Assembly (NCBI GenBank): GCA_965262915.1
Contig: OZ253564.1
Location: 3,424,001-3,488,000 of the forward strand
Origin: Candidatus Spongiisociaceae bacterium
Lineage (GTDB): Bacteria; Actinomycetota; Acidimicrobiia; Spongiisociales; Spongiisociaceae
Direction of reading: 5' to 3'
DNA length: 64,000 bases
The position numbers and the translations under genes were made by a program. Of this stretch, positions 17,045 to 61,356 are shown in pieces. The notes beneath the pieces are model-generated. The model did not search any database, was not told the DNA's origin, and was given only the letters and a program-made list of their open reading frames with translations. Numbering within the stretch: position 1 is the stretch's first letter; the number at the start of each line of letters is the position of its first letter.

Positions 17045-17950
17045 ATGCTCCGCATCACCCGTGACATCGTTTCCTATTTCTACGAAGTCTCGGATTCTCC
17101 TCGGCTCGCTGTCTCGCCCGGTGAAACGGTGGTGTTCGAAACGTGGGACGCCAGGGCAGGTGCATTGCTCGACCGCCCACCGAGCATCCCTTTCGAGCTA
17201 CCCCTACCGACTCCCGGCCGCGGCAACCCTCTGACCGGGCCGCTCGCCGTACGGGGAGCCGATCCGGGTGACGCCCTTGTGGTTCGCATCGAACGTATCG
17301 AGTGCCGATCCCCAGGTTGGTGCGGCGGTCACGCCCATGTCGGACCGTTCCCCATGGGTCGGGTTCCCCGTCCGGTGGGCCGCGTATGCAGGATCGAAGG
17401 CAGTTTGGTTCGGTACTCGGACGATGTGCTTCTGCCGCTCCAACCGATGGTCGGCTGTATCGGCACCGCCGTCCCGGGCGACGCTCCCCAAGCCGGCATT
17501 CCCGGACGACACGGTGGCAATCTCGACCATCCGGTGGTTGCCGAGGGGACCACCGTCATCCTCCCGGTCTTTGCACACAGCGGTCTGCTCTACATTGGCG
17601 ATGTCCACGCTGCGCAGGGTGACGGGGAGTTGTCCGGTGTGGCCGTGGAGATCCCGGCCGAAGTGACCGTGAGCATCGACCTGCTGAAAGGGGTCGGGTT
17701 CCGGTGGCCTTGGGCCGTCACGGCTGGCGCGGTCATGGTCATGACTGCTGATCTCGAGTTCGGGCGGGCCCGCGAGGAAGCGGTAGAAGCAATGATGCGG
17801 GTGCTTGAGTCGCAACTGGGGTTGGAGCCGGCGGATGCCTTGGCGCTGATCTCGGTGGCCGGAAACCTCAGGATCGGGCAAGCCTTCGGAGGGATGGAAA
17901 TGACGCTGCGGCTCGAGATGCCGCGTTCGCTAGGGATCTCTCCGGCCTAG
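17045..17950 (+). CDS. Acetamidase/formamidase family protein
   Basis: NPLTGP, PMVGCIG, HGGNLD, GDVHAAQGDGE. Confidence 0.9.
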   Translation: MLRITRDIVSYFYEVSDSPRLAVSPGETVVFETWDARAGALLDRPPSIPFELPLPTPGRGNPLTGPLAVRGADPGDALVVRIERIECRSPGWCGGHAHVGPFPMGRVPRPVGRVCRIEGSLVRYSDDVLLPLQPMVGCIGTAVPGDAPQAGIPGRHGGNLDHPVVAEGTTVILPVFAHSGLLYIGDVHAAQGDGELSGVAVEIPAEVTVSIDLLKGVGFRWPWAVTAGAVMVMTADLEFGRAREEAVEAMMRVLESQLGLEPADALALISVAGNLRIGQAFGGMEMTLRLEMPRSLGISPA

Positions 17951-18061
17951 GAGGGTGCTGAGAAACCCTGTGCAAAGGGGTTCGCGCGCTAGCCCCCAGC
18001 GCCCTGAGCAGGTAGTTTGCCAACCGGCCAACCCCGCTAGATTCGTTATCGAGCACCCTCC
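17950..18061. mobile_element. 112-bp MITE with terminal inverted repeats GGAGGGTGCT...AGCACCCTCC flanked by TA
   Basis: Perfect 10-bp TIR extending imperfectly to about 17 bp; TA at 17948-17949 and 18062-18063; inserted in the acetamidase TAG stop. Confidence 0.6.
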
Positions 18062-18589
18062 TAATGTCGCGAATCTTTAGTTCGCTGTATGCCAGGACCC
18101 GCGTCAGTCGGTAGTCGTACTGGTACCTGGTGTCCCGAGTCCTTGGTTCGCTACGGTGGGAGACCGACGTCCTCCCACGAAGGGCACGCCCGCCCGCTTA
18201 GATCACTCCCGCGGGGACCGAGCGCGTCGCCACAAGAGGGTTCAGGGTGTCACAGTGCCGTTACCGGTCCGTCTTGCGGTACCGACCGGACCGGGCAGGG
18301 ATCATGTTGCCGGAGCCGACCCCTCATAAGGGATGGCGGGACGCGTTCAGGAACCGAGGAAGTGTTGCTGAACATCAGATCTCCAGTGGTTATGTTATTT
18401 TTGGGTTGGTTGTTACACCGTGTGGTTAACGTAGTAGAGGTTTCGGACGACCGGGGCCGGAGGACGGGACCATGACTCCTGTCAACAATGTCGTGAGCAA
18501 AGGTGACGGTTGCCGGCGGTGCGCTCATCACCGGATGGGCCAGAGCCGCCATCGCTCGTGTAGGGGTGGAGTCGATCAAAGACCCCGAT

Positions 18590-19147
18590 GGAACCATATC
18601 CCGGCTCATGTGGGCTAGCCGGATGGCATCGGACTCGGACACCGCACCCGGATGGATCTTGTAGGCTCGGAATCCGTTATCGACAGCCTCTGCCACCTGC
18701 TCGACCACCAACTCCGTCTGCGTGTGAACAGGAGGAGAGGTGGCGACGACGGGAATCTCCCGGTTGTGTCCCCCTAGCAAGGCGTAGACGGGCACCCCTC
18801 TCGCTTTGGCGACTGCATCCCACAGGGCGATGTCGACGGCCGCCATGGCAGGTTGGAGAGGGAATCCGTGACCGGCCCAGCCGTCCAGTAGGGCCCCAGA
18901 TCTGATCCAGGTCGCTGAGCCGGCAGTCGAGCAGGCGGGGCTTGATCACCTCGGTGACTTGTACCAGACAAGGAGCTAGCTCATCGTCGATCGGACCGAG
19001 CAGGCCGGTAGCTTCAACATCCATGTCGGTCCGCATACGCACCACCCCGTGGTGGATTCGGCCACCGATATGACCACGGTCATCGGCCACCGGAATCGTC
19101 GTGACATCCCACTCGACTATGTCCACTACTAGGTCAAGGATCCGCAC
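18590..19147 (-). pseudogene. Truncated, frameshifted mandelate racemase-family gene remnant
   Basis: The N-terminal ORF (GVVRMRTD..VIKPRLL) joins AAVDIALWDAVAKARGVPVYALLGG...AYKIH after removing one base in the run at 18894-18897; similarity ends before the metal ligands. Confidence 0.75.
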
Positions 19148-19212
19148 CTGCTCCCCCTGGATCACTCGCTAGCGCGGATCCGCCTCTGACAGACATCCGG
19201 CTTCCCGCTTTC

Positions 19213-19716
19213 GTGGTCGGCATCGTGAACCAGGGAGTGCTACTGCACGTAGCTGCGCCCCGCACCATCTACAAACAACCCGCCGACGACTTCGTTGCAG
19301 ACTTCGTCGGGACATTGAACGAACTCACTATCCGTATCGAGAGCGTCGACGGAGAAAGGGGCCTGGTGACCTCCGGAGACCAGGAGAGGATCTGGATAGA
19401 CCTGCCCGGCGGCGGGACCGTCGGAGACATCGTCCGGCTCGCGGTCCGCCCCGAAGCGCTACAGCTCACGCTCGACGGCGAATGGGATAGGACCACCGAC
19501 CTCAGCTACACCAGCGGCACGGTCTCCGATGTCATCTACCTGGGCCCGTTCACGCAATTCCTGATCGAGAGCGATCGGCTGGGACGTCTTGTCAGCCAGC
19601 GGATTAGCGATGCGTCTGCGGCTGCGGTTCGGCCGGGCATGGGGGTCGTCGTCAGCTGGCATCCCGATACCGCATTCATGCTGAGCGGTCCCGCGGCTGC
19701 CGGCGATGATCGCTAG
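19213..19716 (+). pseudogene. 5'-truncated PotA-like ABC ATPase (C-terminal TOBE part only)
   Basis: APRTIYKQPADDFVADFVGTLN, AVRPE, VIYLGP, GRLVSQR parallel the C-terminus of 15893..17035; no Walker motifs. Confidence 0.75.
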
Positions 19717-20632
19717 GAGCGGCGCCCTCCCGACCCTCCGCCGTGACGTCGTCGGCTACAGCTACACCGCCGAACAAACCCCCCGACTGACCGTGGAGGC
19801 GGGCGCGACTGTCCGGTTCGAGACGTGGGACGCGCGTGCCGGCGCCCTTCTCGACCGTGCTCCCGGCTCTCCCTTCGAACTGCCATTACCCACGCCCGGA
19901 CGCGGCAACCCCCTCACGGAGCCCCTTGCAATAAGGGGCGCCGCGCCGGGCGACACCCTTCTGGTCAGAATCGACGACATTTCCTGCATGTCACCGGGCT
20001 GGTGCGGAGGTCATGCCCACGTCGGGCCGCTACCCCCGGGCCGAATACCCCACCCCTTGGGACGCGTCTGCCCCCACGACGGCGACATCGTCCACTACTC
20101 GGATGACGTGAAGCTGCCTCTCTCCCCCATGATCGGCTGCATGGGGACGGCGGTGGCCGATGATCCACCCAACTCGGGACTTCCGGGTATGCATGGGGGG
20201 AACCTGGATCATCCTGTCGTCACGACGGGAGCCGTGGTCCACCTGCCGGTCTTTGTCGATCGGGGACTCCTATACATAGGTGATGTTCACGCTGCGCAGG
20301 GCGACGGCGAGCTTTCCGGGGTCGGCCTCGAGATCCCCGCCGACGTGACAGTGACCGTCGACATCGACCGTGGCCGTCATCTACGGTGGCCGTGGGTAGT
20401 CAACCAGGATCGGGTGATCGTGATGACCTCGGCAACGGAATTCGCGGATGCCAGACAGGAAGCCGTCGAGCAAGCGGTTCGAGTCCTTGAGACACAACTC
20501 GGCTACGAGCCCGCAGATGCTCTCGCCCTCATCTCCGTCGCCTGCGACCTACGCATCGGCCAGGCATTCGGCGGCATGGAGATGACGTTGCGACTCGAGA
20601 TGCCGAGATCACTGGGAATAGTTCCCGGATAG
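19706..20632 (+). CDS. Acetamidase/formamidase family protein (paralog of 17045..17950)
   Basis: FETWDARAGALLDR, HGGNLDHP, GDVHAAQGDGE, GQAFGGMEMTLRLEMPRSLG shared with the first copy. Confidence 0.9.
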   Translation: MIARSGALPTLRRDVVGYSYTAEQTPRLTVEAGATVRFETWDARAGALLDRAPGSPFELPLPTPGRGNPLTEPLAIRGAAPGDTLLVRIDDISCMSPGWCGGHAHVGPLPPGRIPHPLGRVCPHDGDIVHYSDDVKLPLSPMIGCMGTAVADDPPNSGLPGMHGGNLDHPVVTTGAVVHLPVFVDRGLLYIGDVHAAQGDGELSGVGLEIPADVTVTVDIDRGRHLRWPWVVNQDRVIVMTSATEFADARQEAVEQAVRVLETQLGYEPADALALISVACDLRIGQAFGGMEMTLRLEMPRSLGIVPG

Positions 20633-49128: not shown

Positions 49129-50382
49129 CTAGAAGCCGTATGCCCCGGCGAGGATCTCGTAGATCTTATCGTTGAAATCGCCGGCGCCGATGCGGGCGTT
49201 CAGGTCCGCGAGAGCCGCCTCCTGCTCGGCCGTGGCGTTGCAGAAGTCCGCCCCGACCTCGGGATCGATCCCCACGGTAAACCGGCGAACCCCTCCTTCA
49301 AGGGCCGTGCCGTTGAGGATCTCGGTGAAGATGGGAGCGATGTAGTCGCCCGCGTCGAACATGACCTCGAGATCGTATGCCAGATCGTCACGCTCGCATC
49401 CCCTCGACGACCCGGCAGTCATAACGATCAGCCCGTCCGAGTTGGCCAGCTGCGCGATCGCCTCGTGGGCGCCGCCCAGGAACGGGTAGACAGCCGCTAC
49501 TCCTTCGGCCACCGCGGTGTTGTAGGCCTCGGTGGCGCCGGCCGTGTTGTTGAAGTCGAAGGGGTAATTGCCGGTGGGAACGTAGGTGGCGCTGAACGAG
49601 GGATCCACGAGCTGGAGGCCGTACTCGAATGCGGTGAACGACTCCACCTCGAAGTTCAGGTCACAACATCCGAGGAACACCGCGCTGTTGCCCCCGCGTT
49701 CCTGGATCAGGAGGCCGGTGGCATAGCCCGCCGAGATGTTGAGTTCCGCCCCGCTGTCAGCACTGCGGAGCATGCCGGGCGTGTCCTGGAACCCGGATCC
49801 GCAGTTGCAGTACCAGAAGATCTCCTCGTACTCGAGGAAGAGATCCTCGTTGCCGTCGGCGATGCCGCTCGATCCGATCGCGATGACGTCCACGGCTTGG
49901 CTTGCGATGGTCTCCAACTCCTCGCGGGCGTTGGCCTGCTCGACGTTGTCGACTACCAGAGGCGGCTCGTAGCCGGCCTTCTCCGACGTGTCCTCCACCC
50001 ACTCGACCAGAGCCTGGTAATAGGCGCCGTCGTCGCGAGGGCCGTCGGTGACCACCGCGATGCGCACGACGCCGTCACCGTTGAAATCGGCGGCGCCCCA
50101 GTCCGGCGGGGCTGCGGTGGTGTCGAGCATCACGGCCTCCGTGGTTTCGGTTACCGCGGCTGCGGTGCTGTCGGGCGCCGTCGCCTCGGTGCCGGCGGGC
50201 GCCTCGGGCTCGGGCGCCGCCGTGGTGGGAGCGGCCGTCGTCTCGGATGTTTCGGCCACTGTGGTGGTGGACGGCGAGGCGGTGGTGGTGGACGGTTCGG
50301 AGGTATCGCCGTCGCCGCAGGCCGCCGCCACCAGGGCCGCCGCCACCAGTCCTGCCAGGAGCTTCCTCGACCAGCGTTCCAT
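49129..50382 (-). CDS. BMP-family ABC transporter substrate-binding lipoprotein
   Basis: GGGAGG RBS, lipobox AAACG, long T/A/P/E linker, DDGAYYQ, YPFLGG; located upstream of nucleoside ABC genes. Confidence 0.8.
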   Translation of the reverse strand: MERWSRKLLAGLVAAALVAAACGDGDTSEPSTTTASPSTTTVAETSETTAAPTTAAPEPEAPAGTEATAPDSTAAAVTETTEAVMLDTTAAPPDWGAADFNGDGVVRIAVVTDGPRDDGAYYQALVEWVEDTSEKAGYEPPLVVDNVEQANAREELETIASQAVDVIAIGSSGIADGNEDLFLEYEEIFWYCNCGSGFQDTPGMLRSADSGAELNISAGYATGLLIQERGGNSAVFLGCCDLNFEVESFTAFEYGLQLVDPSFSATYVPTGNYPFDFNNTAGATEAYNTAVAEGVAAVYPFLGGAHEAIAQLANSDGLIVMTAGSSRGCERDDLAYDLEVMFDAGDYIAPIFTEILNGTALEGGVRRFTVGIDPEVGADFCNATAEQEAALADLNARIGAGDFNDKIYEILAGAYGF

Positions 50383-50581
50383 CCGTCCCGTACCTCCCCT
50401 TGATGCCCGAAGCGGGGATCCTACGCTCTCCCGCTCCTCCTGCCCTGACCGTCCAGCGGCGGCTCCTCCACCGTTGCGGGCTGGTCCGATACGCGGCAAT
50501 CCGGCCAAGTACCGACTCAGGCTAGCGACCGGACCGCGAACCCGTCCACCGGATTCGACCGGAAACCACCGGCCCGCGGTG

Positions 50582-51370
50582 CTACCGAGCAGTGCGGGGA
50601 TGGCCGTGGACCGCCGCGTAGAGCCGCCGCACCATGGCTGTGGGATCCTGGGCGCTCCACGTGTTGCGGCCGAAGGCGATCCCCGATGCTCCGGCGGCCA
50701 CTACATCGGCCGCGTAACGGACCGCATCGTCCTCGCTGTCGCGCTTGGGACCGCCGAGCACGAAAACGGGCGCCTCGCAGTTGCACACGACACGGGGAAG
50801 GTCGCCGATGTCCGGCGGGGCCATCGTCTTGATCGCGTCTGCCCCGAGTTCGATGCAGATGCGGGCGCCCCGGGCGATGTGCTCCGCATCCCACGGAACA
50901 TCCCTTGCCCATCCCCCCGGAATCGACTCGGCGATCACGGGCATCCCGATCTTCTCGCACTCGCACACCAGTTCGGCCAGCCGCCGCAGCGAAGGTCCTT
51001 CCTCGTCCATGCCGGGGTAGACCATGAGAACGACGGCGTCGGCGCCGATCGTGGCTGCCTGCTCGGCCCCGTACAGGAGGGAGAAGCTGTCGCCGGGTGC
51101 GAAACCGCCCATCTGGGTCACGCCGCCGTCCACCCGCAACACGAGACCGCACCGGGCGAACGCTTCCGGGTAGCGCCGGGCGATCTGCCAGGTGGAGAGG
51201 ATCCCGTCCGGCCCTCCGTCGGCAACCTTCTCGACGACATCCAGCGCCGGTCCGTCACCCGAGGCCGATTGCATATCGATCGCCACCAGGAACGCCCGCC
51301 CGTCCCGGCCGATGAACCGGGAGGCCCGGCGCAACTTGCCGGCCCCCACCGCCGAAGAGATGTATTCCAT
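50582..51370 (-). CDS. Class I aldolase, DhnA/LsrF family
   Basis: GADAV, ELGADAIKT (Schiff-base Lys), LGGPK, FGRN; AAGGAG RBS before ATG 51370. Confidence 0.85.
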   Translation of the reverse strand: MEYISSAVGAGKLRRASRFIGRDGRAFLVAIDMQSASGDGPALDVVEKVADGGPDGILSTWQIARRYPEAFARCGLVLRVDGGVTQMGGFAPGDSFSLLYGAEQAATIGADAVVLMVYPGMDEEGPSLRRLAELVCECEKIGMPVIAESIPGGWARDVPWDAEHIARGARICIELGADAIKTMAPPDIGDLPRVVCNCEAPVFVLGGPKRDSEDDAVRYAADVVAAGASGIAFGRNTWSAQDPTAMVRRLYAAVHGHPRTAR

Positions 51371-51426
51371 GTTGCACAGTCTCCTTGTCGCTGTAGGTCC
51401 CGGACCGCATCGAGTGTCGATCGCGG

Positions 51427-52734
51427 TCACTCCCGCCGCTCGGCCACTTCCAGACGGGCTGTCACCTCGTCCCCGAGGGCGATGAAGCGCTCGAGACCCT
51501 CCCGGTAGGCGGCGGCGGGTTCGGGGTCGAAGGTGGTGACGGGCGGGGTCGGCCAATCACCAGGCCCGCCTTCGCCCGGCCGGGGCCACCAACCTAGCGC
51601 GGCGCCGGCGCCCAGGGCCGCTCCGTAGGCCGCCATCTCGTCGCACTCCGGCACGTCGAACGGGACGCCCAGGACCGATGCCTTGATGGAGGTCCAGAGC
51701 GTGCTACGCGAGGGACCTCCCGAACATACCACCCTCTGCAGGATCACACCCTGGTCCCCCAGGACGCGGGCAATGTGAGCCAGGCCGTAGGCGGTCGATT
51801 CGAGCAACGCCCTCGTGATGATCGGCACCCCGGAACCCGGCCCGAGACCGTGGATGGAGGCGCGCAGCCTCATGTCCCAGCGGGGCGCTCGCTCGCCCTC
51901 CAGGAAGGGCAGCACGATGACCCCGGCAGATCCGGGCGGTACCTCGGCTGCCGCCTCCAGCAGGTCGGGTATCGGCCGGCCGGTGATCCCGGACCACCAA
52001 TCCATGATGGCGCCGTGGGCGGCGACCGGACCGCCAACTATGTAGACGCCGGGCACCGGGCTCGGCATCCCGTACTCGACGGCGGGGGGGTATTCGGCCA
52101 CCGACACTGCCACCCCCAGACCGCCGGTCTTCCCGCCGGGGTCGAAACCCCGCCCCGGAGCATCGATAGAGGCGGCCCATGCCGTCATGAACGCGTCGTT
52201 GCTGCCGGGCGCCAGGACGATGCCTGGAGGAAGCCCCTGGTCTCCCGACGTGACCCCGGCAGGGGAACCGACCGGGACCGGCGTCCCGAATCCGGGAAGC
52301 CCCTCCATCGACGACCATACGCTCTGGATCCCCGGCGAACCTCCCAGGGCGGACACTATGTAGTCCCACATCTGGCGAGGCTCGGCACCGGGCCCGAACC
52401 GTTCCCTCAACACGCCCGCCTGTGCCTCTTGCTGCTCGGTGGGGCCGGCGGTCGCTCCGGCGGGATGACGGAAGGTCACCGCCAGTTCTCCTGTCGACAC
52501 CACCGTGGTGGGACCCTGGCCACCGACGCACAGCGCCGTCGGTCTCTCACAGCCGAGCCCACCGACGGCGCGCGAGAGTCCCGCCAGCCAGATGGCCGGA
52601 TCGACCTCGCCGGTCGGACGCCGGACGCCGGACGTGTATGCCGATCTCGAAGTGGCCACGACGCTCCCGGCCCGGTCTATCGCGACGGCGCGGGCCGCGC
52701 CGCTGCCGATGTCGACTCCGGCGACGATCGGCAT
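51427..52734 (-). CDS. FGGY-family carbohydrate kinase
   Basis: GVDIGSG, GQGPT, GSND, PFLEGERAP, GGPSRS. Confidence 0.9.
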   Translation of the reverse strand: MPIVAGVDIGSGAARAVAIDRAGSVVATSRSAYTSGVRRPTGEVDPAIWLAGLSRAVGGLGCERPTALCVGGQGPTTVVSTGELAVTFRHPAGATAGPTEQQEAQAGVLRERFGPGAEPRQMWDYIVSALGGSPGIQSVWSSMEGLPGFGTPVPVGSPAGVTSGDQGLPPGIVLAPGSNDAFMTAWAASIDAPGRGFDPGGKTGGLGVAVSVAEYPPAVEYGMPSPVPGVYIVGGPVAAHGAIMDWWSGITGRPIPDLLEAAAEVPPGSAGVIVLPFLEGERAPRWDMRLRASIHGLGPGSGVPIITRALLESTAYGLAHIARVLGDQGVILQRVVCSGGPSRSTLWTSIKASVLGVPFDVPECDEMAAYGAALGAGAALGWWPRPGEGGPGDWPTPPVTTFDPEPAAAYREGLERFIALGDEVTARLEVAERRE

Positions 52735-53753
52735 CAGCCGTTCTCGAACTCCACGAACACGCGATAGGTCGGTTCGGAGGTCACCAGCGTGAGGGCATCG
52801 CCCAGGCCCGCCAGGGGGAACCGGGCGGATACCAGACGGTTGAGCTGGTCGGCGATGACTCCGGAGCGTATGATGGTCGAGGCCCGTCTCCAGTCCTCCG
52901 GCTCCTGGTTGAAGGCTCCGACGATGGCCACCTCCTCGCGGTGAGACCTGTCGGCGCCCACCGAGGCGGTCACGTCCTTGTCGAACGCGCTGTAGAGAAC
53001 CACGGTTCCCCCGCGGTCGGCCAGTTCCACGGCCAGGTCCACCCCTCCCATGGCAGCCACGAAGACTACGTCTGCCCGATCCCCCACCTCCATGGCATCG
53101 CCCGGCTCGGCAACCCAGTCGGCGCCGACCTCGAGGGCCTCGGACCGGCGAGCGGCCGACAGATCGATCACGCCGATGGTCGAGGCGCCGCCCAGCCTGG
53201 CCAGGGCCATGTGGATCCGTCCCATGAGGCCCCCGCCGATGATGGTCACCCGATCACCCGGTCTGAACCGACCCTGACGCAGGGAGTGGACGCAGCAGGC
53301 GATCGGTTCCCCCATCGCGGCATGGGCCATCGGCGCATCGCCAACCGGATGGACCGACTTGGCGTCGACCGCGATCCTCTCGGTGAACCCGCCGAACGCC
53401 ACCGTGCCATCGGACAGCCTCCGTCCCTGCCGGTATTGGCACAGACCGGTCTTGCCCCGCCGGCACGGTCCGCAGGTGAGGCATCGGGTGAGCAGGTCGA
53501 TGGTTACGCGATCACCAACCTGGGGAGAGCCCACCAGCCCGTCCACCCCTGTGCCGGCGGCCACGATGACCCCGGCGGCCTCGTGGCCCGGCGAGACCGG
53601 ATACCAGAGTTTGTCGCCCGCGAAGAGCCGGCGTTCGAGGGTGCATATACCGCACGCGGCTATATCGACCAGCACTTGGTCGGCGCCCGGGGTGGGGACG
53701 GGCTCCTGGCGGAATTCGACCTCTCCGGGTCCCGTGATGACTGCTGCTTTCAA
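52734..53753 (-). CDS. Zinc-dependent medium-chain alcohol/polyol dehydrogenase
   Basis: CGIC, GHE, CxxCxxCx7C, EPIAC, GGGLMG. Confidence 0.9.
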   Translation of the reverse strand: MKAAVITGPGEVEFRQEPVPTPGADQVLVDIAACGICTLERRLFAGDKLWYPVSPGHEAAGVIVAAGTGVDGLVGSPQVGDRVTIDLLTRCLTCGPCRRGKTGLCQYRQGRRLSDGTVAFGGFTERIAVDAKSVHPVGDAPMAHAAMGEPIACCVHSLRQGRFRPGDRVTIIGGGLMGRIHMALARLGGASTIGVIDLSAARRSEALEVGADWVAEPGDAMEVGDRADVVFVAAMGGVDLAVELADRGGTVVLYSAFDKDVTASVGADRSHREEVAIVGAFNQEPEDWRRASTIIRSGVIADQLNRLVSARFPLAGLGDALTLVTSEPTYRVFVEFENG

Positions 53754-54229: not shown

Positions 54230-54682
54230 TCAGTCCCTGTACAACGCCACCCACTTGATGATCTCGTCGACTTCGGCCGACAGCTCCATCAGGCCGACGT
54301 GCTCGTCGTAGAGATCGCCGTCCATCTGTGCCTTTATCTCCGGCTCCAGCACGTGATATACAGGAAGTCCCAACGGGACTCCGGCCAACGGACCCGCCCA
54401 GGTCGGATCGCCTCTCGTCACCGTCTCCGCGAAGAGACCGGCGCTGTTGGCGTCCGGCTGGCCCAGCACCACGACCATGTCGTCGGTACCGGAAGTCTCG
54501 GCCAGGCGGTTTACGTTCGCCTGGTCCTCCAAGTCCATGGCGCCCCCCGCCGTTCAGACGAAACACTGGGTGACGCTGAACACCACGGTGGCACCGGCCG
54601 ATTCGGCCAGCAGCTTGAGGCTGGGGCCGTTGACGCCTTCGCGCTCGCCGATGGCCACCACCCGCTTACCGTTCAGATCCAT
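54230..54682 (-). CDS. grdA: Glycine/sarcosine/betaine reductase selenoprotein A (Sec at codon 43, UGA 54554-54556)
   Basis: MDLNGKRVVAIGEREGV...TQCFV-UGA-TAGGAMDLEDQ...GDPTWAGPLAGVPLGLPVYH; AAAGGAGG RBS; CxxU motif. Confidence 0.92.
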
Positions 54683-54835
54683 GCGTGGACCTCCTTTCAT
54701 TGCCTTTCGAGACCGGTCGAACCCGCGGGCCGCTCACCACCACGATACGTCCGGACCGCCAGCATAGATCGCTTTGGTAAGGCCGGGATCGACTACAAAC
54801 CAACGGCGAACATACTAACGCTGGCTAGCGGGTTC

Positions 54836-55633
54836 ATGGACTCCTACGACTTCACTCTCAATCCGTACAGCGGATGCTCCTTCGGTTGTACCTATTGCTA
54901 TGCCGCATTCTTCAGCCCGGACAAACAGAAAAGAGATTCCTGGGGGGACTGGGTGGTAGTCAAAGAGAACGCAGTCGAGTTGATGAGAAGGCGTAGGCGC
55001 GGTGGATTGGACGGAAGGCGCATCTATATGAGCAGTGTGACCGATCCTTACCAGCCCATTGAGAGGAAGCTGGAGATTACCCCGGAATTGCTCAAGATCA
55101 TGGCCGAGCATCACAGGCCGAAGCTAATGGTACAGACCCGTAGCCCCCTCGTCGTGCGGGACTGTGACCTGTTCCGGCAGATCGAGGGGAGCGGTGGAAG
55201 GGTTCAAGTCAATATGACGGTCACCACCGACGATATGGACATCATGCGAACGTTCGAGCCGCTCTGCCCTCCCAACCGGAAACGCTTGGAGGCGATCACA
55301 AAGATACGGGAGGCCGGTGTCGAGTCCTGTATCACGATGACACCCCTGCTGCTGGTCAGCAACGATCACGAATTCGCCGATAGCCTGATCGAGACCGGGG
55401 TCCAGAAGTTCATCGCCCAGCCCTTCCACTTCAAGAAGGGCAAGTTCGTGGCCAACACCCGCCAGGAAGCCTTCGACCTGATGTCGGAGAAGCTCGGCTG
55501 TAACCGTGGAAACTTCATTCCCAGATACCTCGGGGCCTATGACGAGTTCGTCCGGATGTTCAAGATGAGGCTACTCGAGGAAGGGCTACCGGAACTGGGG
55601 ATAGGCAAGTCCGGCTTCGAACCACCGTGGTAA
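54836..55633 (+). CDS. Radical SAM protein, spore photoproduct lyase-like family (true start uncertain, coding-like sequence extends upstream)
   Basis: LNPYSGCSFGCTYCYA, MSSVTDPYQP, QTRSP, FEP. Confidence 0.8.
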   Translation: MDSYDFTLNPYSGCSFGCTYCYAAFFSPDKQKRDSWGDWVVVKENAVELMRRRRRGGLDGRRIYMSSVTDPYQPIERKLEITPELLKIMAEHHRPKLMVQTRSPLVVRDCDLFRQIEGSGGRVQVNMTVTTDDMDIMRTFEPLCPPNRKRLEAITKIREAGVESCITMTPLLLVSNDHEFADSLIETGVQKFIAQPFHFKKGKFVANTRQEAFDLMSEKLGCNRGNFIPRYLGAYDEFVRMFKMRLLEEGLPELGIGKSGFEPPW

Positions 55634-55661
55634 TGGCCCCCTGTCCGGTAATCAGATAAAG

Positions 55662-56078
55662 CTACAGCCTGAGCACCGGCACGTCCGGCGACTCAGGCCG
55701 GGGGCCCAGTGTCCGGTTCCGGCAGTCAGCAACCAGATCGAGTTCCTCCATGACGAGTTGACCGATCAACGGGTCGGCGCCCGGCGGCACCACGACGCAT
55801 CGAGCGAACGTCCAGCGGTCACCGATGTGCACGGTCAAGGGGCCGGCAATCGCTAGCTCACCTCGCCGACCGTCCGCGTAGGCGAAGGTTCCGCTGCCCA
55901 CAACCTCTACGCCGAGCCGCTCCACGACATCCGCGGGCAGCGCGAGCATCAGCGCACCTGTATCCGCAACAGCGCTGACCGTAGCCCGGCGGATTTCCGT
56001 CTCCCGGAGGATTCCCTTGTTGACCATCGCGCGGTCTTCCGCGTTCTGCAACTCGATGTCAACGACGATCTCGCCCAT
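55662..56078 (-). CDS. Clan AA (retropepsin-like) aspartic protease
   Basis: ADTGA, ADGR, LIGQLVMEELDL. Confidence 0.85.
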   Translation of the reverse strand: MGEIVVDIELQNAEDRAMVNKGILRETEIRRATVSAVADTGALMLALPADVVERLGVEVVGSGTFAYADGRRGELAIAGPLTVHIGDRWTFARCVVVPPGADPLIGQLVMEELDLVADCRNRTLGPRPESPDVPVLRL

Positions 56079-56176
56079 AGCTCGGCTTCAACTCCCCTCT
56101 CCGGCGTGTTCGCAGTGTGATTCGCAAGTGTATCGATGTATCAGTCATACCTGCTAACACTCACATACTAACACTA

Positions 56177-57625
56177 CTATGAGCCAGCCTCTGGTCGGTG
56201 GCCAGAAGCGGAGGGTCGTTCCACCACGAAGGACACCCCGTCGACCAACTGCGTCATCCTGCCCAGGAACAGGCTGCCCTTGGCGATGATCATCGCCCGA
56301 TCCAGCTCGCCTCGGCGCATGGCCCGGTGCGCGTGGCCGAGGTAGGGGACGCCGGCCGGAATGTGGCCTTGCGTTGGGGCGAACCCCGGCATCCCACGCT
56401 CGGTCACGAACCTGTCCATCTCGCCCCTTTGTATCTCGCCCCGCAGGACCGCCATCGCCGCCAGGGTGCGGTAGTTGGTCCTGGGTACGTCGCCGCTCCC
56501 ACCCGGTTCGGTGATCTCCGGGTTGTGCATCTCCACCGCGTACCGATCGATGTCGGTCATGCCGAGACCGGCCCTCACCAGCGGTTCCACCACCAGCGCC
56601 TCGTAGACAGCCCGCGACGACGACCCGGCCCCTATCGGATGCCGGCCGGTGAGGTCGAGACGCAGTCGCATACCGTCGCCGTCGGCGGGACCGACCAGGA
56701 AGGCCATCGAAGCCAGGCAGTCCTCCATCACGGGTACCCCGTTGCGAAGGTGGGCGGCGAACTTCATGCCCAGCTTGGCCTGCGACCCGCCGCCCAGTAC
56801 CACCACGTACTCGTGAAGACCCGCCGCGACCATCGCCCCGGCCGCGATCAGGGCATGCACGGGTGCGGCGCAGAAAGCCTTGATATCGGACCCCGTGGCG
56901 TTCACGCAGCCGACCACCTCCCCGACGGCCTTCGACAGGCTACCCCCGCCCCGCTGGTAACGGTCCCCCACCGCCTCCTCCCCGCTGTTGAACAGGTAGT
57001 CCACCCGGGATGCCGGAAGGGCGCTCCGGATCATCAGGTCCGAGACGGCAAGCACCGCGGTCGCCTTGGCAGCCAGATTCTCGAACAGCACATGGGCGGA
57101 CAGCGACGCGTCCTGTTCGTGGGCGGTGCGCATGAACCCGGCCACCCTCCCCCCGTCGTAAAGGGGAAGTCCGCTGCTGCGGTCCATGATCTCCCCCAAT
57201 TCGGCCGGCCCGACACCGGTGATGCGGTCCATCCGGTGACCGAAGGCGGTCAACTCCGCCCTGGCCCGGTCCGCCAATCGCTGGTCGATGGTGAGAAGGT
57301 CGAAGTCGTCGCACAACTTCATCAGCCCGTAGAGCGCGGCCTGGGTAACCAATCGGCCTAACGGCCCGGTGGACCGGGCGGGGACAACCCTGTTCTCGTA
57401 CCAGGGGCGGGGGATGGAGGCGAGGTCGTCAGGAGCGAGGTTGCCGATGAAGGTCTGGTTGGGCGGGTAACCGACCACCTCCTCCCAGGGGCGGAGGGCC
57501 TTGGTCAGCCGTGCCGACAGGGAAGGGTCCCTCTCGATCTCGCGGACTGGTTTCGATCCGTACCGGACGAAATCGGGAGCGTGGGCCAGCGCGTAGGACG
57601 TGTCGAGGATGGCGGGTAACGGCAT
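56177..57625 (-). CDS. grdC: Glycine/sarcosine/betaine reductase component C subunit beta
   Basis: YPPNQTFIGN, EEAVGDRYQRGGG, AFCAAP, EMHNPEIT, GFAPTQGHIP, KGSLFLGRMT. Confidence 0.92.
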   Translation of the reverse strand: MPLPAILDTSYALAHAPDFVRYGSKPVREIERDPSLSARLTKALRPWEEVVGYPPNQTFIGNLAPDDLASIPRPWYENRVVPARSTGPLGRLVTQAALYGLMKLCDDFDLLTIDQRLADRARAELTAFGHRMDRITGVGPAELGEIMDRSSGLPLYDGGRVAGFMRTAHEQDASLSAHVLFENLAAKATAVLAVSDLMIRSALPASRVDYLFNSGEEAVGDRYQRGGGSLSKAVGEVVGCVNATGSDIKAFCAAPVHALIAAGAMVAAGLHEYVVVLGGGSQAKLGMKFAAHLRNGVPVMEDCLASMAFLVGPADGDGMRLRLDLTGRHPIGAGSSSRAVYEALVVEPLVRAGLGMTDIDRYAVEMHNPEITEPGGSGDVPRTNYRTLAAMAVLRGEIQRGEMDRFVTERGMPGFAPTQGHIPAGVPYLGHAHRAMRRGELDRAMIIAKGSLFLGRMTQLVDGVSFVVERPSASGHRPEAGS

Positions 57626-57652
57626 CAGACTGCACTCTCCAGGGTCACCAGG

Positions 57653-58962
57653 TCACCAATCGGCGAATATTCGGGCTTCGTGGAGAGTAGTGGCAGCCGC
57701 CCTGAGGGCCTTGCACACCTGCTCGCGGCGCCAGGCGACCTCTTCGCCGGGCGTACGTACCGGGTAGCCCACCGGGTGGGGGATGAGGCCCGACGAACGG
57801 ATCCGGTTCGCCCCGGCGACCTTCGCTATCGATGTCATCGCGGTGAGCAGGGTGGCCGGTATCCCGTGCTTCTCGATCATCTTGCACATCGTTGCACCGC
57901 AACGCGTCCCGGTCCCTCAGGTACTGGTGGCGACGACCGCCTGGACCCCGTCGGCTCGGAGCCGGCGGGCGATCTCGGCGCCCATCCGCTCCGCGTCGGT
58001 CACGGTGGTACCGGTGCCCGTCGTCACGTAGACGTAGTCGTGGAGCTTGCCGATGGCGCCTTCCTCGGCCAGGGCGCGTAGGGCGTCGATCGGCACCAGC
58101 CGGTTGGGGTCGGCATCAACCCACTGCGAGTCGTAACCCGCATGGATGGACCGGAACACGGGCCACCGGTTGTCCTCGATCATGGCGAGCGGGTACCGGG
58201 CCCAGCGGGTGGCGCCGGAGGATTCGATGCGGTCCGGGTTGCCCTCCGGCACGAGCCCCCTTCGGTCAGGATGGCGACGGTGGTGGTCGACAGGTCCGCT
58301 ACTGCGGGCGCCGGTGGGACCGTCTCGGCCTGGGCCGGGAGCCGTACCTCGCTGGTGTACGGTTCGCCACCGACCTTGGCCATCAGCATGTCGAGGGCCC
58401 TGGCAGCCACCGGCGTGCGGTTCACCCAGGCGCCGCGGTAGCCCATGGGAATCCTCCCGTCATCGGCCGCCGGAAGCAGGTCCCCGCCGCGGGCGAGGCG
58501 GAGCCCGACCCTTGCCATCGACTCGAGCGCCGGGCGCATCCCGGCAGCCGAGTCGGCCGTGGCCACCATGACCACCCGGCTGCGGTAGACATCGACCGCC
58601 GGGGCATCAGGGAAGAGCCCGACAACCGCGGGGATCCCGAGCCGCTCCCTCGCGCCCGCTGCCACCGCCGCGCAGGCCAGCCCGTAGCGGCCGGCATTGA
58701 AGGCAGGGCCGGCCAGCACCAGATCCGGCTCGACTTCGGCGATGGCGGCGAGAGCGACATCGAGGTTCGCGTCCGCATCGGCGTGAAAGGCGTTGTCACC
58801 ACACACCAGGGTCCGCACGATCCTGGCCCCGTCATCAAGTAGCTGCTCGAGGGCCCGACCCGAACCGACCACCCCGTCGTGAACCTGCAAGGGGGTGCCC
58901 GCCCTGTCCTCGCCGCCGATCCCCCCGAAGAACTGGTTGAGGTAATGAACCATGCGGATCAT
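57653..58962 (-). CDS. grdB: Glycine/betaine/sarcosine reductase selenoprotein B (Sec UGA 57917-57919; -1 frameshift in the run at 58256-58260)
   Basis: VHYLNQFFGGIGGE, GPAFNAGRYG, (GL)VPEGNPDRIES, HAGYD, DPNRLVP, TST-UGA-GTGTRCGATM, GANRI, IPHPVG; split into three ORFs in the track. Confidence 0.9.
57890..57904 (-). promoter_or_regulatory. Bacterial SECIS hairpin of grdB
   Basis: CGTTGC-GGT-GCAACG perfect stem starting 12 nt 3' of the UGA. Confidence 0.8.
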
Positions 58963-58965
58963 CTA

Positions 58966-59127
58966 GTGGTCTGTCTGTGAAATGGCGGCGTGGTATGCGC
59001 CGGCAGCGGCGTTCCTCGCAAGGCCCGCCGACGAAGGCGTACCGGGAGCGTACGTAGAGGAGGCGGAACGCAGCGAGGGCCGTCGCTGGCAAGCAGAGCA
59101 CGCCAGGTTATTTTGCAGGCAGACCAC
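58966..59127. mobile_element. 162-bp MITE, copy 2, with TA target duplication, between the grdE stop and grdB start
   Basis: TA|GTGGTCTGTCTGTGAAAT...ATTTTGCAGGCAGACCAC|TA. Confidence 0.85.
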
Positions 59128-60416
59128 TAAAAGGCCCTTCCGGTGAGTATGTTGCCGCCCAACTGGTTGACGCCGCAGTAGTGGTAGTACATCTTGAGGT
59201 CGAACGGGCCGCGGGCCGGCGTTTCTCCGTCGAGCAGCAGGTCGTCCCCGATCACCCGCCCGACCTCCGGCATGGTCACGATCTCGTCCTCGGAGCCGAC
59301 GCTGACGATAGCGTCGGCCTCGGGCACCGTGTAGAAGAGCGGGAAGTCGTACCCGTCGATGCCCGGCGCCTCCGACGAGACGACGACGGTCCTGATACCG
59401 GCCTGCTCCATGTACCGGCAGGCGAGCATCATGTCGATGGCCGAGTTGCCGCCCCCCTCGGCAGTGAGAACCGCCCCGTCTGCCCCTAGGAAGCCGCCGA
59501 GCTTGGCCGCCCAGTGGGACGAGCGCTCCTTGTCCTCCTGGGTGTAGTTGTGGCCGCGGTTGATGATGACCCCGGCGAAGTTCAGGTCCCGGCCGTGACG
59601 AGCTGCGAGCTCCCGGATGATCGGGTTGTTCTGGTGGAGGAAGGTGGGGTTCTTATAGCAGGCGTACACGTGGACCCCGCTCACGATGGCGCCGTCGATC
59701 ACCTCGTTGGGGTGGATGAGCGTGGGAACCAGGTTGTGGATGGTCCGCCCGTACAGGTAGGTGTCGGCCATGCTGCCCTGTCCCTGGAGCTGGTAGAAGT
59801 AGACGACGTTCGGCAGATCGGGGTGGGGGGTCGAGAAGTCGAATGTCGTCGTGGAGTCGGCTACGGCATCGGCGGTCAGGAGTGCCCGCCGGGCGACCAT
59901 CTCGGCCACCCGGAGCGTTGCTCTCCGGATGGCGTCGTCGTAGTCGTCGTTTCCCACGGTGGGATTCGGGGTGTATACCAGCACCACGTTGCAGACCCGC
60001 GACATCGGGCTGTAGACAGCGGTCGGGCCGGACATGTCCACCACCGCTTCGCGTGCCTGGAGCAGTCCCGATAAGGGCTGGGGATAGCGGCTCGACGCCA
60101 GCACGCTCACCCCGTCGATACGCACGGTTCGGCCCTCGCCTACGGTGTCCATGCCGCCGAGGAAACCCGGAAACACGGTCCCGACCCCCGGCTTGGTACG
60201 GGGTTCGACCGCGTCGAGGCAATGCACGATACGCACGTCCTCCCCCGGTCGGGCTACGGCAACTTCGACATCGGCGATGCGGGCGTCCGAGAGAACGGTG
60301 GACGCCACTTCCCGGTTCGAGATCGTCAGGGTGTGCCCGGACACCGAGGTGGCGTTGCCGAGCCGTACGTCTTCTATGTGAATGGACCGCACATCGAGCC
60401 GCAAGGATCGCCGCAT
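59127..60416 (-). CDS. grdE: Glycine/sarcosine/betaine reductase component B subunit (GrdE/GrdI family)
   Basis: ARPGEDVRI, DAVEPR, FPGF, VGEGRT, DMSGP, PTLIHPNEVIDGAIVSG, KNPT..HQNNP, EGGGN, DAIVSVG. Confidence 0.88.
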   Translation of the reverse strand: MRRSLRLDVRSIHIEDVRLGNATSVSGHTLTISNREVASTVLSDARIADVEVAVARPGEDVRIVHCLDAVEPRTKPGVGTVFPGFLGGMDTVGEGRTVRIDGVSVLASSRYPQPLSGLLQAREAVVDMSGPTAVYSPMSRVCNVVLVYTPNPTVGNDDYDDAIRRATLRVAEMVARRALLTADAVADSTTTFDFSTPHPDLPNVVYFYQLQGQGSMADTYLYGRTIHNLVPTLIHPNEVIDGAIVSGVHVYACYKNPTFLHQNNPIIRELAARHGRDLNFAGVIINRGHNYTQEDKERSSHWAAKLGGFLGADGAVLTAEGGGNSAIDMMLACRYMEQAGIRTVVVSSEAPGIDGYDFPLFYTVPEADAIVSVGSEDEIVTMPEVGRVIGDDLLLDGETPARGPFDLKMYYHYCGVNQLGGNILTGRAF

Positions 60417-60429
60417 GCCTGGATCCAGC

Positions 60430-61356
60430 CTACCGCGCCGGCTGTCGCCGCGAGTCGCGGATCCGAATGAGGTCGGTCACCACCACCCCCAGCAGAACTA
60501 GCGCACCCCCTACGACGATTCCCGGCTGGATCTGCTCGTCCAGCATCACAACACCGGCAGACACGGCAATGAACGGGACGATGTAGCCGATGATCGTGGA
60601 GTAGGTGACGGTGACGTGGCGGATGAGGAAGTAATAGAGGCCCAACGGGACCAACGTCCCCAGTGAACCCACGTAGAGCAGGCTGAGCTGACCAGTCATC
60701 GAGGGGGTGGCGGGTACACCTTCGATTGCCAGCGCCAAGAGGGACAGGGCAACGCAACCGATGGCGAGCTGGACCCCCGTCACACCGAGCACCGAGTACT
60801 GACCGGCGTAGCGCTTGGCATAGACGGCCGCGACCGATACGGACACCACGCTGACGAGTACGAACAGTCCGGCCAGGAGTGGGTTGCCGCCTTCCGCGAC
60901 CCCCGAGTCGCCCCCGAGCAGCAGTACCGCCACCCCGCCGAGCCCCAGCAGCAGACCGACCAAGGTGACGACTTTCAGCCGCTCGTTGGCCAGCATGAAA
61001 TGCGCCACCAGCGCTGTCACCAGCGGGATCAGCGCGTTGACCAGGGACACGAAACCGGCCGAAGCATTCTCGAGAGCCAGGTTCCGTGTCTGGTAGGGCA
61101 GCAGCACGCTGAGCACCGACAGCACCGCCCCCATACGCAGTTCGAGCGGACCGACCAGCGTCCCCCGCCTCCGCCCAGCAATCAGGAAGATGACCGCTAC
61201 CGCCGCGATCAGCGAGGAAGCGGCGGCGATAGTGATCGGCCCCAACCCCTCACGGAGGGCCATCCTCACCGCGATGGGAGAGGAACCCCACCCGAAGCTG
61301 ATGAGGAGCACGAGCGCCCAGACCCGGCGGTCCGAGATGACAGATTTCACGGCCAA
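60430..61356 (-). CDS. EamA/DMT family transporter
   Basis: About 10 TM helices, GWG, PLVTALVAH..L.E, LDEQI; 13 bp upstream of grdE. Confidence 0.9.
   Translation of the reverse strand: MAVKSVISDRRVWALVLLISFGWGSSPIAVRMALREGLGPITIAAASSLIAAVAVIFLIAGRRRGTLVGPLELRMGAVLSVLSVLLPYQTRNLALENASAGFVSLVNALIPLVTALVAHFMLANERLKVVTLVGLLLGLGGVAVLLLGGDSGVAEGGNPLLAGLFVLVSVVSVSVAAVYAKRYAGQYSVLGVTGVQLAIGCVALSLLALAIEGVPATPSMTGQLSLLYVGSLGTLVPLGLYYFLIRHVTVTYSTIIGYIVPFIAVSAGVVMLDEQIQPGIVVGGALVLLGVVVTDLIRIRDSRRQPAR

Follow-up and report, generated by a model that had tools for sequence, protein, structure and literature searches.

A 64-kb stretch of Candidatus Spongiisociaceae DNA (contig OZ253564.1, G+C ~64 %; the whole stretch is referred to below as the window) carries a cluster of genes for a selenocysteine (Sec)-dependent reductase of the glycine/betaine (Grd) type. 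Genes for an EamA-family transporter, for GrdE- and GrdB-like subunits of protein B (GrdE' and GrdB') and for GrdC lie in the same orientation on the minus strand, and grdA follows 1.5 kb further on, on the same strand (Table 1). This is the arrangement given in a preliminary description of the locus, which had also placed a drug/metabolite transporter (DMT) upstream of grdE. The transporter gene lies 13 nucleotides (nt) upstream of the grdE-like gene, and its NCBIfam matches fall far under the respective cut-offs (YedA, 65 bits against 270). Three further genes, encoding a dehydrogenase, a sugar kinase and an aldolase (50582-53753), lie just outside the part of the window described earlier and had been missed. 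Selenoenzymes of the Grd type are well known from anaerobic Stickland fermenters, and to our knowledge only four Grd substrates have been assigned: glycine, sarcosine, betaine, and fluoroacetate. On the evidence of sequence comparison, the cluster is a real and uncharacterised branch of the Sec-dependent glycine/betaine-type reductases.

Table 1 Features of the grd region and its flanks in window coordinates (aa, amino acids; ORF, open reading frame; SECIS, selenocysteine insertion sequence)
Feature	Position	Strand	Family match or remark
EamA/DMT-family transporter, 308 aa	60430-61356	-	PF00892, 116 bits
GrdE-like alpha subunit of protein B (GrdE'), 429 aa	59127-60416	-	PF09338 (Gly_reductase), 402 bits
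GrdB-like selenoprotein B (GrdB'), via one frameshift and one Sec codon	57653-58962	-	PF07355
G5 run with one base missing, between ...ILTEGG and LVPEGNPD...	58256-58260	-	
SECIS-type hairpin of grdB, GCGUUGC-GGU-GCAACGA	57889-57905	-	begins 12 nt after UGA
GrdC, component C beta subunit, 482 aa	56177-57625	-	NF040746, 589 bits vs cut-off 450
Clan AA aspartic protease-like ORF, 138 aa	55662-56078	-	TIGR03698, 40 bits, under cut-off 57
Radical SAM gene, PA0069/Rv2578c type	54764-55633	+	PF04055, 50 bits; NF033668, 124 bits vs cut-off 360
GrdA selenoprotein A	54230-54682	-	NF040748, 198 bits vs cut-off 130
Zn-dependent polyol-type dehydrogenase	52734-53753	-	PF08240 + PF00107; 71 % identity to L001 neighbour
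FGGY-family sugar kinase	51427-52734	-	PF02782; 63 % identity to L001 neighbour
Class I DhnA/DeoC-type aldolase	50582-51556 (homology 50603-51370)	-	PF01791; 73 % identity to L001 neighbour

GrdE' has at least 120 relatives at 61-98 % identity, and the few that carry a name come from metagenome-assembled genomes of Acidimicrobiia and Actinobacteria. A genome scan returned 26 related loci (designated below by L numbers), distributed over Acidimicrobiia and other Actinomycetota, including two complete Ca. Spongiisociaceae chromosomes, several Chloroflexota and two contigs binned as Alphaproteobacteria; some of the relatives derive from saline, marine and sponge sources. The synteny proposed as a check is conserved in most of these loci, the usual order being GrdE-GrdB-GrdC-GrdA with 35-90 nt between grdC and grdA in most relatives. 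GrdB comes after GrdE in 25 of the 26 loci, the exception, L012, stopping at a contig edge, and GrdC and GrdA are found in 20 and 19, respectively. An EamA homologue is present directly upstream of GrdE in nine of the 26 loci (on the opposite strand in L018), as it is in the window.

Both selenoprotein genes are interrupted by an in-frame UGA, as first described, and in each case the TGA lies at a known Sec site. In grdA the codon occupies 54554-54556 within the motif C-F-V-U, which conforms to the C-x-x-U of selenoprotein A; in grdB it occupies 57917-57919 within T-S-T-U-G-T-G-T-R-C, and homology to GrdB runs ~85 residues beyond it to the terminal TGA at 57653-57655. The sense codons or decay that relatives might have shown at these sites were not found: TGA stands at the aligned Sec position in all 25 clade GrdB genes and all 19 clade GrdA genes, and in the four GrdB references read there. 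Automatic annotation does fragment these genes, as had been anticipated, since 95 of the 120 GrdB homologues listed have a length of 347-349 residues, which corresponds to truncation at the TGA. The UGA of grdB is followed by a hairpin with the consensus (G/U)CGUUGC-GGN-GCAACG(C/A), which we compared in 30 sequences including four references from low-GC Bacillota and Photobacterium. Of the seven pairs, six are standard in all 30 (with U-G for U-A once), and the closing pair covaries, being G-C in 25, U-A in three and broken in two. The synonymous third positions of the codons CGU, UGC, GCA, and ACG are invariant even though the genomes differ widely in composition, which points to a constraint on the RNA and not on the protein alone. 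A conserved hairpin, CCUGG-NNNN-CCAGG, also follows the UGA of grdA at ~21 nt (CUUGG-AGGA-CCAGG at 54520-54533 on the minus strand of the window). Because the position of the codon, the coding sequence downstream and the hairpin are all conserved, grdA and grdB are predicted to be read through UGA as Sec.

The two accessory components are readily recognized, GrdC and GrdA each passing their NCBI equivalog models, and it is protein B that sets the clade apart. In the window, GrdB' is split into two pieces (see below), which score 206 and 215 bits on the subfamily model TIGR01918 (cut-off 65) and fall far short of the equivalog models: 222 + 202 bits on the GrdF model NF040794 (cut-off 800), 187 + 213 bits on the GrdH model NF040795 (cut-off 775), and 190 + 188 bits on the GrdB model TIGR01917 (cut-off 602), on which the reference GrdB of Acetoanaerobium noterae reaches 946 bits. 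The full-length GrdB' of L001 behaves likewise, with 474, 446, and 412 bits on the GrdF, GrdH and GrdB models against the same cut-offs. GrdE' obtains 321 bits (321-337 in the clade) on the GrdG model NF040793, whose cut-off is 780, and 160 bits on the FarE model NF053623 (cut-off 675), on which canonical GrdE proteins score 142-206.

The residue three positions after Sec also differs. The clade reads U-G-T-G in 22 of 25 loci, U-G-T-S in three and U-G-T-C in none, as against U-G-T-C-T-R-C in the four references read at this site, so that the earlier observation of UxxG in place of UxxC in GrdB stands. A recent review lists the GrdB motif as UxxC and UxxCxxC (PMC13188914); the window, with U-G-T-G-T-R-C, departs from the U-x-x-C-x-x-C of protein B. 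Further motifs have been published, namely AHGGxD...TxGNxTxV for GrdB and IHGGYDR...TTGTGT for GrdF (PMC9751293). The GrdB' of the window reads IHAGYDS...TTGTGTT, which differs from both although TTGTGT is present.

We next consider the alpha subunit, in which the preliminary description had noted the lack of the pyruvoyl-forming cysteine. We aligned 13 clade sequences at the column of Cys242 of A. noterae GrdE, which is reportedly the cleavage site. Cys occupies this column in GrdG and in Photobacterium GrdE, and Phe in the betaine-type GrdI. None of the 13 clade sequences has Cys there: four, including the window (with L003, L013, and L017), have His and nine have Tyr. GrdE' is thus predicted to be unable to form a Cys-derived pyruvoyl group. 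As a distinguishing trait, the missing cysteine had been overstated, since its absence is the majority state in the wider family. Among 1.84 billion representative proteins, 266 GrdE-like clusters were found at E <= 1e-30; in 143 of the best 150 of these clusters (those of at least 380 residues, a list biased towards the query), the column holds Cys in nine, Tyr in 70, Phe in 17, His in eight and another residue or a gap in 39. With the pyruvoyl cysteine in only 9/143 representatives, most of the family probably acts on substrates yet to be assigned. The passages on fluoroacetate reductase in PMC10838667 likewise describe FarE and GrdI as being without processing cysteines and FarB as being without CxxC. 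Both deviations therefore have precedents, and the novelty lies in this clade and its context. A search of the sequences of solved structures with GrdE' and with the C-terminal part of GrdB' returned no match.

A maximum-likelihood tree of GrdB' (obtained by a quick search) was built from the window, 21 clade sequences and five labelled references; L012 (no grdB), L014, L017, and L018 (truncated), and L016 (frameshifted) were left out. The references throughout, taken from a plasmid collection, were the GrdE/GrdB of A. noterae, GrdG/GrdF of Peptoclostridium acidaminophilum, GrdI/GrdH of Enterococcus gilvus, a Photobacterium pair and a second, GrdH-like pair of A. noterae that lies beside a BCCT gene. 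A branch with a Shimodaira-Hasegawa-like approximate likelihood ratio (SH-aLRT) support of 99 separates all 22 clade rows from the five references, and the window groups with L013, L003, and L006. The phylogeny called for in the preliminary description thus separates GrdB' from these five references, with which tight clustering had been conceivable. Together, the scores under all equivalog cut-offs and the separate branch uphold the original idea of a variant Sec-dependent Grd-type system, and they indicate that the protein B lineage (GrdE' and GrdB') is distinct from the glycine, sarcosine, and betaine enzymes.

The same data bear on the simplest alternative, that of a canonical glycine or sarcosine reductase whose motifs have drifted neutrally. 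The top NCBIfam scores are those of the sarcosine models GrdG and GrdF, and GrdA and GrdC pass their equivalog cut-offs, as this explanation would have it. Yet the protein B scores are only about half of the cut-offs, the pyruvoyl-site cysteine is missing from 13/13 clade sequences, the published GrdB and GrdF motifs are absent, and the clade occupies its own branch. Changes conserved in this manner across two phyla are not drift, and we regard this explanation as highly improbable.

Two groups of loci deserve separate mention. In L023-L026 (a deeper subclade of Chloroflexota, ~49-52 % identical), an amine-oxidase-type flavoprotein gene (PF01593) lies between GrdE and GrdB, GrdC and GrdA were not found within the fetched flanks, and a NitT/TauT-type ABC transporter (with an NMT1-family binding protein) and a hydantoinase are encoded downstream; these loci may represent a further functional variant. 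The contigs of L010 and L014 are binned as Alphaproteobacteria (Kiloniellaceae, Rhodospirillales). The L010 cluster nests inside the Acidimicrobiia branch of the GrdB tree, a placement that suggests mis-binning or recent transfer, and the Grd pieces of L014 are 57-79 % identical to those of the window.

The grdB gene of the window contains a frame break that had been overlooked. Positions 2-235 of PF07355 match one reading frame and positions 235-347 another, with the change located at a run of five G residues from which one base is missing (Table 1). Four relatives read GAA GGC GGG CTG or GAG GGG GGG TTG at this site, and the window is one base short. The two pieces are contiguous and in frame in 24 of the 25 related loci holding grdB (L016 is also shifted). 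The closest database protein, P0123, has 348 residues, ends just before the Sec codon and shows no frame break; it shares 99 % identity with the upstream GrdB piece and 91 % with the downstream piece. Because P0123 and 24/25 relatives stay in frame, the break appears to be private to this assembly, and it is either a homopolymer assembly error or a very recent inactivating mutation. Programmed frameshifting was considered and rejected, as 24/25 relatives are in frame and the defect is a missing base.

Other irregularities were seen in and around these genes. At 58150-58190 of the window (GrdB residues ~265-271), a six-residue run reads N-R-W-P-V-F where P0123 has H-R-R-S-G-I, with near-identical flanks, which could reflect paired compensating frame changes in one of the two. 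The C-terminal part of GrdB runs straight into the last 220 residues of GrdC in L014 (1764-2843), and frame changes affect grdB and grdA in L016 (11281-14538) and grdE and grdC in L018 (10001-14042).

These findings raise the question of whether the cluster in this window is a decaying remnant, in which the grdB frameshift is real, grdC and grdA have been split, a neighbouring aldehyde dehydrogenase (ALDH) gene has been lost and no active enzyme is made. One base is indeed missing relative to four relatives, with a change of frame, and other gene remnants occur in the window (17950-19716). In addition, a 1.5-kb insert separates grdC from grdA, which are 35-90 nt apart in most relatives. This gap holds the protease-like ORF and, on the opposite strand, the radical SAM gene, and it appears to be a local insertion because grdA stands directly after grdC in relatives. 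The protease-like ORF is without counterpart in the 26 related loci (a singleton family) and thus lies outside the conserved cluster. Against decay, only a single base is involved, the G5 run in which it is missing is the sort of site where assembly errors typically arise, and a 99 %-identical relative is in frame. Both grdB halves retain a strong coding signal: in the downstream piece, the G+C content at third codon positions (GC3) is 0.91, and the Sec codon, hairpin and stop are intact. All other genes of the cluster are intact as well. Furthermore, grdC-grdA gaps of 340-570 nt and the lack of ALDH are common to the intact loci L003, L006, and L013, and are therefore lineage traits and not signs of decay. 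On balance we consider decay somewhat unlikely.

As regards component C and its redox partners, the clade GrdC proteins keep the Cys of F-C-A-A-P and are missing the ~30-residue C-terminal tail of three reference GrdC proteins. Searches by tblastn with GrdD, thioredoxin reductase (TrxB), thioredoxin (Trx), BCCT and GrdX gave no match in the 64-kb window or in the 26 clade loci, and the same queries matched every reference locus expected to hold them. The absence of grdD and trx genes from the cluster, first noted for the window, therefore extends to the loci of its relatives. A structural model of a GrdC homodimer obtained a score of 0.93, compared with 0.00 for the best of three controls, with at least 67 % contact agreement and a partner pLDDT (predicted local distance difference test) of at least 88 in the homodimer runs. 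The mark used for a homodimer was reached by 20 of 30 proteins solved as one-chain pairs and by one of 23 solved as single chains.

The genes flanking the clusters were analyzed by all-against-all clustering of flank ORFs, Pfam and NCBIfam scans, and tblastn. In eight Acidimicrobiia-type loci (L001, L002, L005, L008, L009, L010, L018, and L019), grdA is followed by genes for an ALDH, a Zn-dependent polyol-type dehydrogenase, an FGGY kinase, a class I DhnA/DeoC aldolase, a VOC protein and a GntR regulator; four more (L004, L011, L020, and L022) are short contigs that end in the ALDH gene. In the window and L006, the dehydrogenase, kinase and aldolase genes are present but no ALDH accompanies them. 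In the Chloroflexota loci L016, L017, and L021, a mannose-type phosphotransferase system (PTS; IIB/IIC/IID), an aldolase and dehydrogenases are encoded upstream, and in L016 and L021 an ALDH also downstream; no FGGY kinase was found in these three loci, of which L017 is a short contig that says little. The trio of aldolase, dehydrogenase and kinase also lies near the cluster in L023, L024, and L026, at ~30-40 % identity. The accessory genes of Chloroflexota are in general only ~30-40 % identical to those of Acidimicrobiia, compared with 49-64 % for the Grd proteins. This greater divergence, and the PTS in the place of the kinase, would indicate repeated recruitment and not inherited synteny, and repeated recruitment of the same functions argues for a functional link to Grd. 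Since the clade is wired to sugar-type genes, its substrate is probably not glycine. The nearest solved relatives are MJ0400, an archaeal class I fructose-bisphosphate aldolase and LsrF for the aldolase, xylulokinase and glycerol kinase for the kinase, and iditol, sorbitol, galactitol-1-phosphate, and threonine dehydrogenases for the dehydrogenase. No finer assignment of the three was obtained, as all lie under the NCBIfam equivalog cut-offs and have generic relatives only.

The best-scoring model of the ALDH brings glycine betaine into consideration. The clade could be a divergent betaine reductase equivalent to GrdHI, converting betaine to trimethylamine and acetyl phosphate, with the sugar genes forming an unrelated operon. 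Like GrdI, which has Phe at the cleavage column, GrdE' (His or Tyr) would remain unprocessed, the GrdH model gives the highest score for the C-terminal half of GrdB' (213.5 bits), the ALDH beside grdA in 12 loci has its best match among betaine-aldehyde dehydrogenase (BADH) models (463 bits), and the saline, marine and sponge origin of some relatives would fit. However, this ALDH score is below the cut-off, and on the GrdH model, with its cut-off of 775, GrdB' sums to ~400 bits in the window and reaches 446 in L001. In the tree, both GrdH references are set apart from the clade on a branch of their own (SH-aLRT 100). The comparison at the Sec site covered two GrdH genes (E. gilvus L028, and L027) and left aside the GrdH-like gene of A. 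noterae (L031); both keep the U-G-T-C that the clade never shows. Finally, a BCCT gene is present in both GrdH reference loci and in none of the 26 loci or the window. We therefore judge a betaine reductase to be quite improbable.

We instead favor, with a probability of about 0.7, the reading that this clade of Acidimicrobiia and Chloroflexota encodes a pyruvoyl-independent Sec reductase for an acid of the type X-CH2-COO-, made from a sugar- or polyol-like import. Without a carbonyl cofactor, a primary or secondary amine would not be activated via a Schiff base, and X would already have to be a good leaving group; the substrate would thus be an acetate derivative X-CH2-COO-, as for betaine reductase GrdHI and fluoroacetate reductase FarEB. 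In the proposed mechanism, the GrdB' selenolate would attack the alpha carbon with release of XH, and the Sec of GrdA would take over the carboxymethyl group. GrdC, which may act as a homodimer in place of GrdC/GrdD, would then yield an acetyl thioester and from it acetyl phosphate or acetate, and GrdA would be re-reduced by a thioredoxin system encoded elsewhere. Upstream of these steps, a sugar- or polyol-like compound could be imported by EamA or the mannose-type PTS, oxidised by the Zn-dependent polyol dehydrogenase and phosphorylated by the FGGY kinase or the PTS. Cleavage by the class I aldolase would give dihydroxyacetone phosphate and X-CH2-CHO, which the BADH-like aldehyde dehydrogenase would oxidise to X-CH2-COO-. 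Because cleavage of a ketose 1-phosphate leaves an aldehyde whose alpha carbon is C5, a 5-substituted pentulose-type precursor would give the C2 acid. Trimethylammonio, dimethylsulfonio, methylthio, and hydroxyl groups may be named as candidates for X, all of them guesses. For the amine or onium substrate and the different direction of the reaction suggested in the preliminary description, we found no direct evidence.

Several observations weigh against this proposal. With respect to decoding, the grdB hairpin encodes T-R-C-G-A-T, so that part of its conservation could be at the protein level. Hairpin energies calculated from single sequences are unremarkable compared with shuffles (z = 0.22 for grdB and -1.74 for grdA), and since the grdB fold is no better than its shuffles, the case for a SECIS element comes entirely from the comparative alignment. 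No Rfam family reached its gathering threshold in the window, which leaves it without a curated SECIS call. No selA, selB, selD, or tRNA-Sec was found in the 64-kb window or the 26 loci, which is where they were searched for, and a tRNA scan returned none in either. Since grdB is out of frame in the window and true gene remnants exist elsewhere (17950-19716), this copy may be dead. The GrdB' tree includes only five references and no FarB. As for the sugar-type genes, their link to Grd is inferred from neighbourhood only: L003 and L015, with at least 9 kb on both sides, have none of them, the ALDH is missing from the window, L006, L003, and L013, and its assignment is below threshold (463 bits on the BADH model, cut-off 668). 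GrdD is said to carry the acetyl-thioester cysteine, and without GrdD the acetyl phosphate step is left unexplained. Thiolase-fold dimers are common among solved structures, and the result for the GrdC homodimer may reflect a mere likeness to these.

A bolder extension of the proposal is that the clade performs the last step of a hitherto undescribed catabolic route used by Acidimicrobiia and Chloroflexota that are for the most part aerobic or facultative, sponge symbionts among them. By this route a 5-substituted pentose- or polyol-like compound would be converted to X-CH2-COOH, whose C-X bond the pyruvoyl-independent selenoenzyme would cleave reductively, with GrdA and a GrdC homodimer but no GrdD, to give acetyl phosphate. 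In this full form we think it unlikely. If it were true, Grd chemistry would extend past amino-acid fermentation to sugar-derived thioether, onium or hydroxy acids.

The remaining features of the window concern genes outside the conserved cluster. A radical SAM homologue at 71 % identity lies 2.5 kb downstream of grdA in L013, so that such a gene is near the Grd cluster in only two of 27 loci (the window and L013). Homology to the L013 relative begins at 54764, and when codons 101 to 186 of its frame were scanned for ATG, GTG, and TTG, a lone ordinary start codon was found, ATG at 54836; as the homology extends upstream of it, the gene has an unusual start or a damaged 5' end. A role as a FarC-like maturase was set aside in view of the gene's opposite orientation, its PA0069/Rv2578c type and its presence near the cluster at only 2/27 loci. 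Between the aldolase gene and an ABC transporter operon, a 459-residue ORF with a strong coding signal (49129-50508, minus strand, GC3 0.83) gave no Pfam or NCBIfam match and could encode a divergent substrate-binding protein. The remnants at 17950-19716 comprise the C-terminal portion of a TOBE-domain ABC ATPase (19105-19716, plus strand) and an enolase-superfamily fragment (18250-18945, minus strand). They are flanked by paralogous acetamidase/formamidase genes at 17045-17950 and 19706-20632, and the stretch looks like a partly decayed segmental duplication. Positions 1-48000 are rich in amidohydrolases, enolase-superfamily enzymes, a creatininase, acetamidase/formamidase paralogues, a Mo-hydroxylase large subunit and several ABC importers, a gene content indicative of a heterotroph scavenging small nitrogenous compounds; housekeeping genes that could serve as taxonomic markers are absent.

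A full-text literature search found no paper describing this clade, and the lone paper containing both "Acidimicrobiia" and "glycine reductase" was unrelated. In the part of a 2006 survey that covers these proteins, GrdA and GrdB are listed under "Actinobacteria" only for Symbiobacterium (PMC1794560). The present data add a coherent clade under Sec constraint in two other phyla, including sponge-associated lineages. What appears new is a clade with a putatively GrdD-less component C (no GrdD in any neighbourhood) and a conserved link to sugar genes. Routine annotation overlooks the system, since most database entries cut both selenoproteins short at the UGA. If the substrate were identified, carbon, nitrogen or sulfur cycling would gain a new reaction of reductive C-X cleavage, and the selenium demand in these uncultured groups would be explained.

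Compared with known systems, the sarcosine (GrdG/GrdF) and glycine (GrdE/GrdB) reductases of P. acidaminophilum and Acetoanaerobium share with the clade the same Pfam families, the E-then-B gene order and the Sec position, and sarcosine reductase is the closest by raw hidden Markov model score (GrdG, 321 bits; GrdF, 222 + 202 bits). They differ in having Cys at the cleavage site, U-G-T-C, and the motif AHGGxD...TxGNxTxV (GrdB) or IHGGYDR (GrdF). Their operons, which are found in anaerobic amino-acid fermenters, include grdD, trxA/trxB and often grdX. Betaine reductase GrdH/GrdI (P. acidaminophilum, E. gilvus) is alike in its two-gene protein B with a Sec beta subunit, its alpha subunit without the processing Cys and hence without a pyruvoyl group, its use of shared GrdA and GrdC, and the same SECIS-type hairpin after the UGA. 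However, GrdH keeps U-G-T-C-T-R-C where the clade has U-G-T-G/S, and trxB, trx, grdD and a BCCT gene are found in the reference locus; the clade instead shows EamA or PTS together with neighbours of the sugar type. Fluoroacetate reductase FarE/FarB of Cloacibacillus porcorum, as portrayed in the sections of PMC10838667 devoted to it, resembles the clade in the absence of pyruvoyl-forming cysteines from FarE and of CxxC by the Sec of FarB. The enzyme is specific for its substrate and is accompanied by a dedicated transporter, with a shared GrdA and protein C as the predicted recipients of its product, and its operon includes a radical SAM gene, a likeness to the window (PMC10838667). On the FarE model (cut-off 675), however, GrdE' obtains 160 bits, a value within the range of canonical GrdE, and GrdB' keeps the second Cys (U-x-x-G-x-x-C). 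GrdHI and FarEB are the closest known systems, and by model score the cluster falls outside these as well as outside the sarcosine and glycine reductases.

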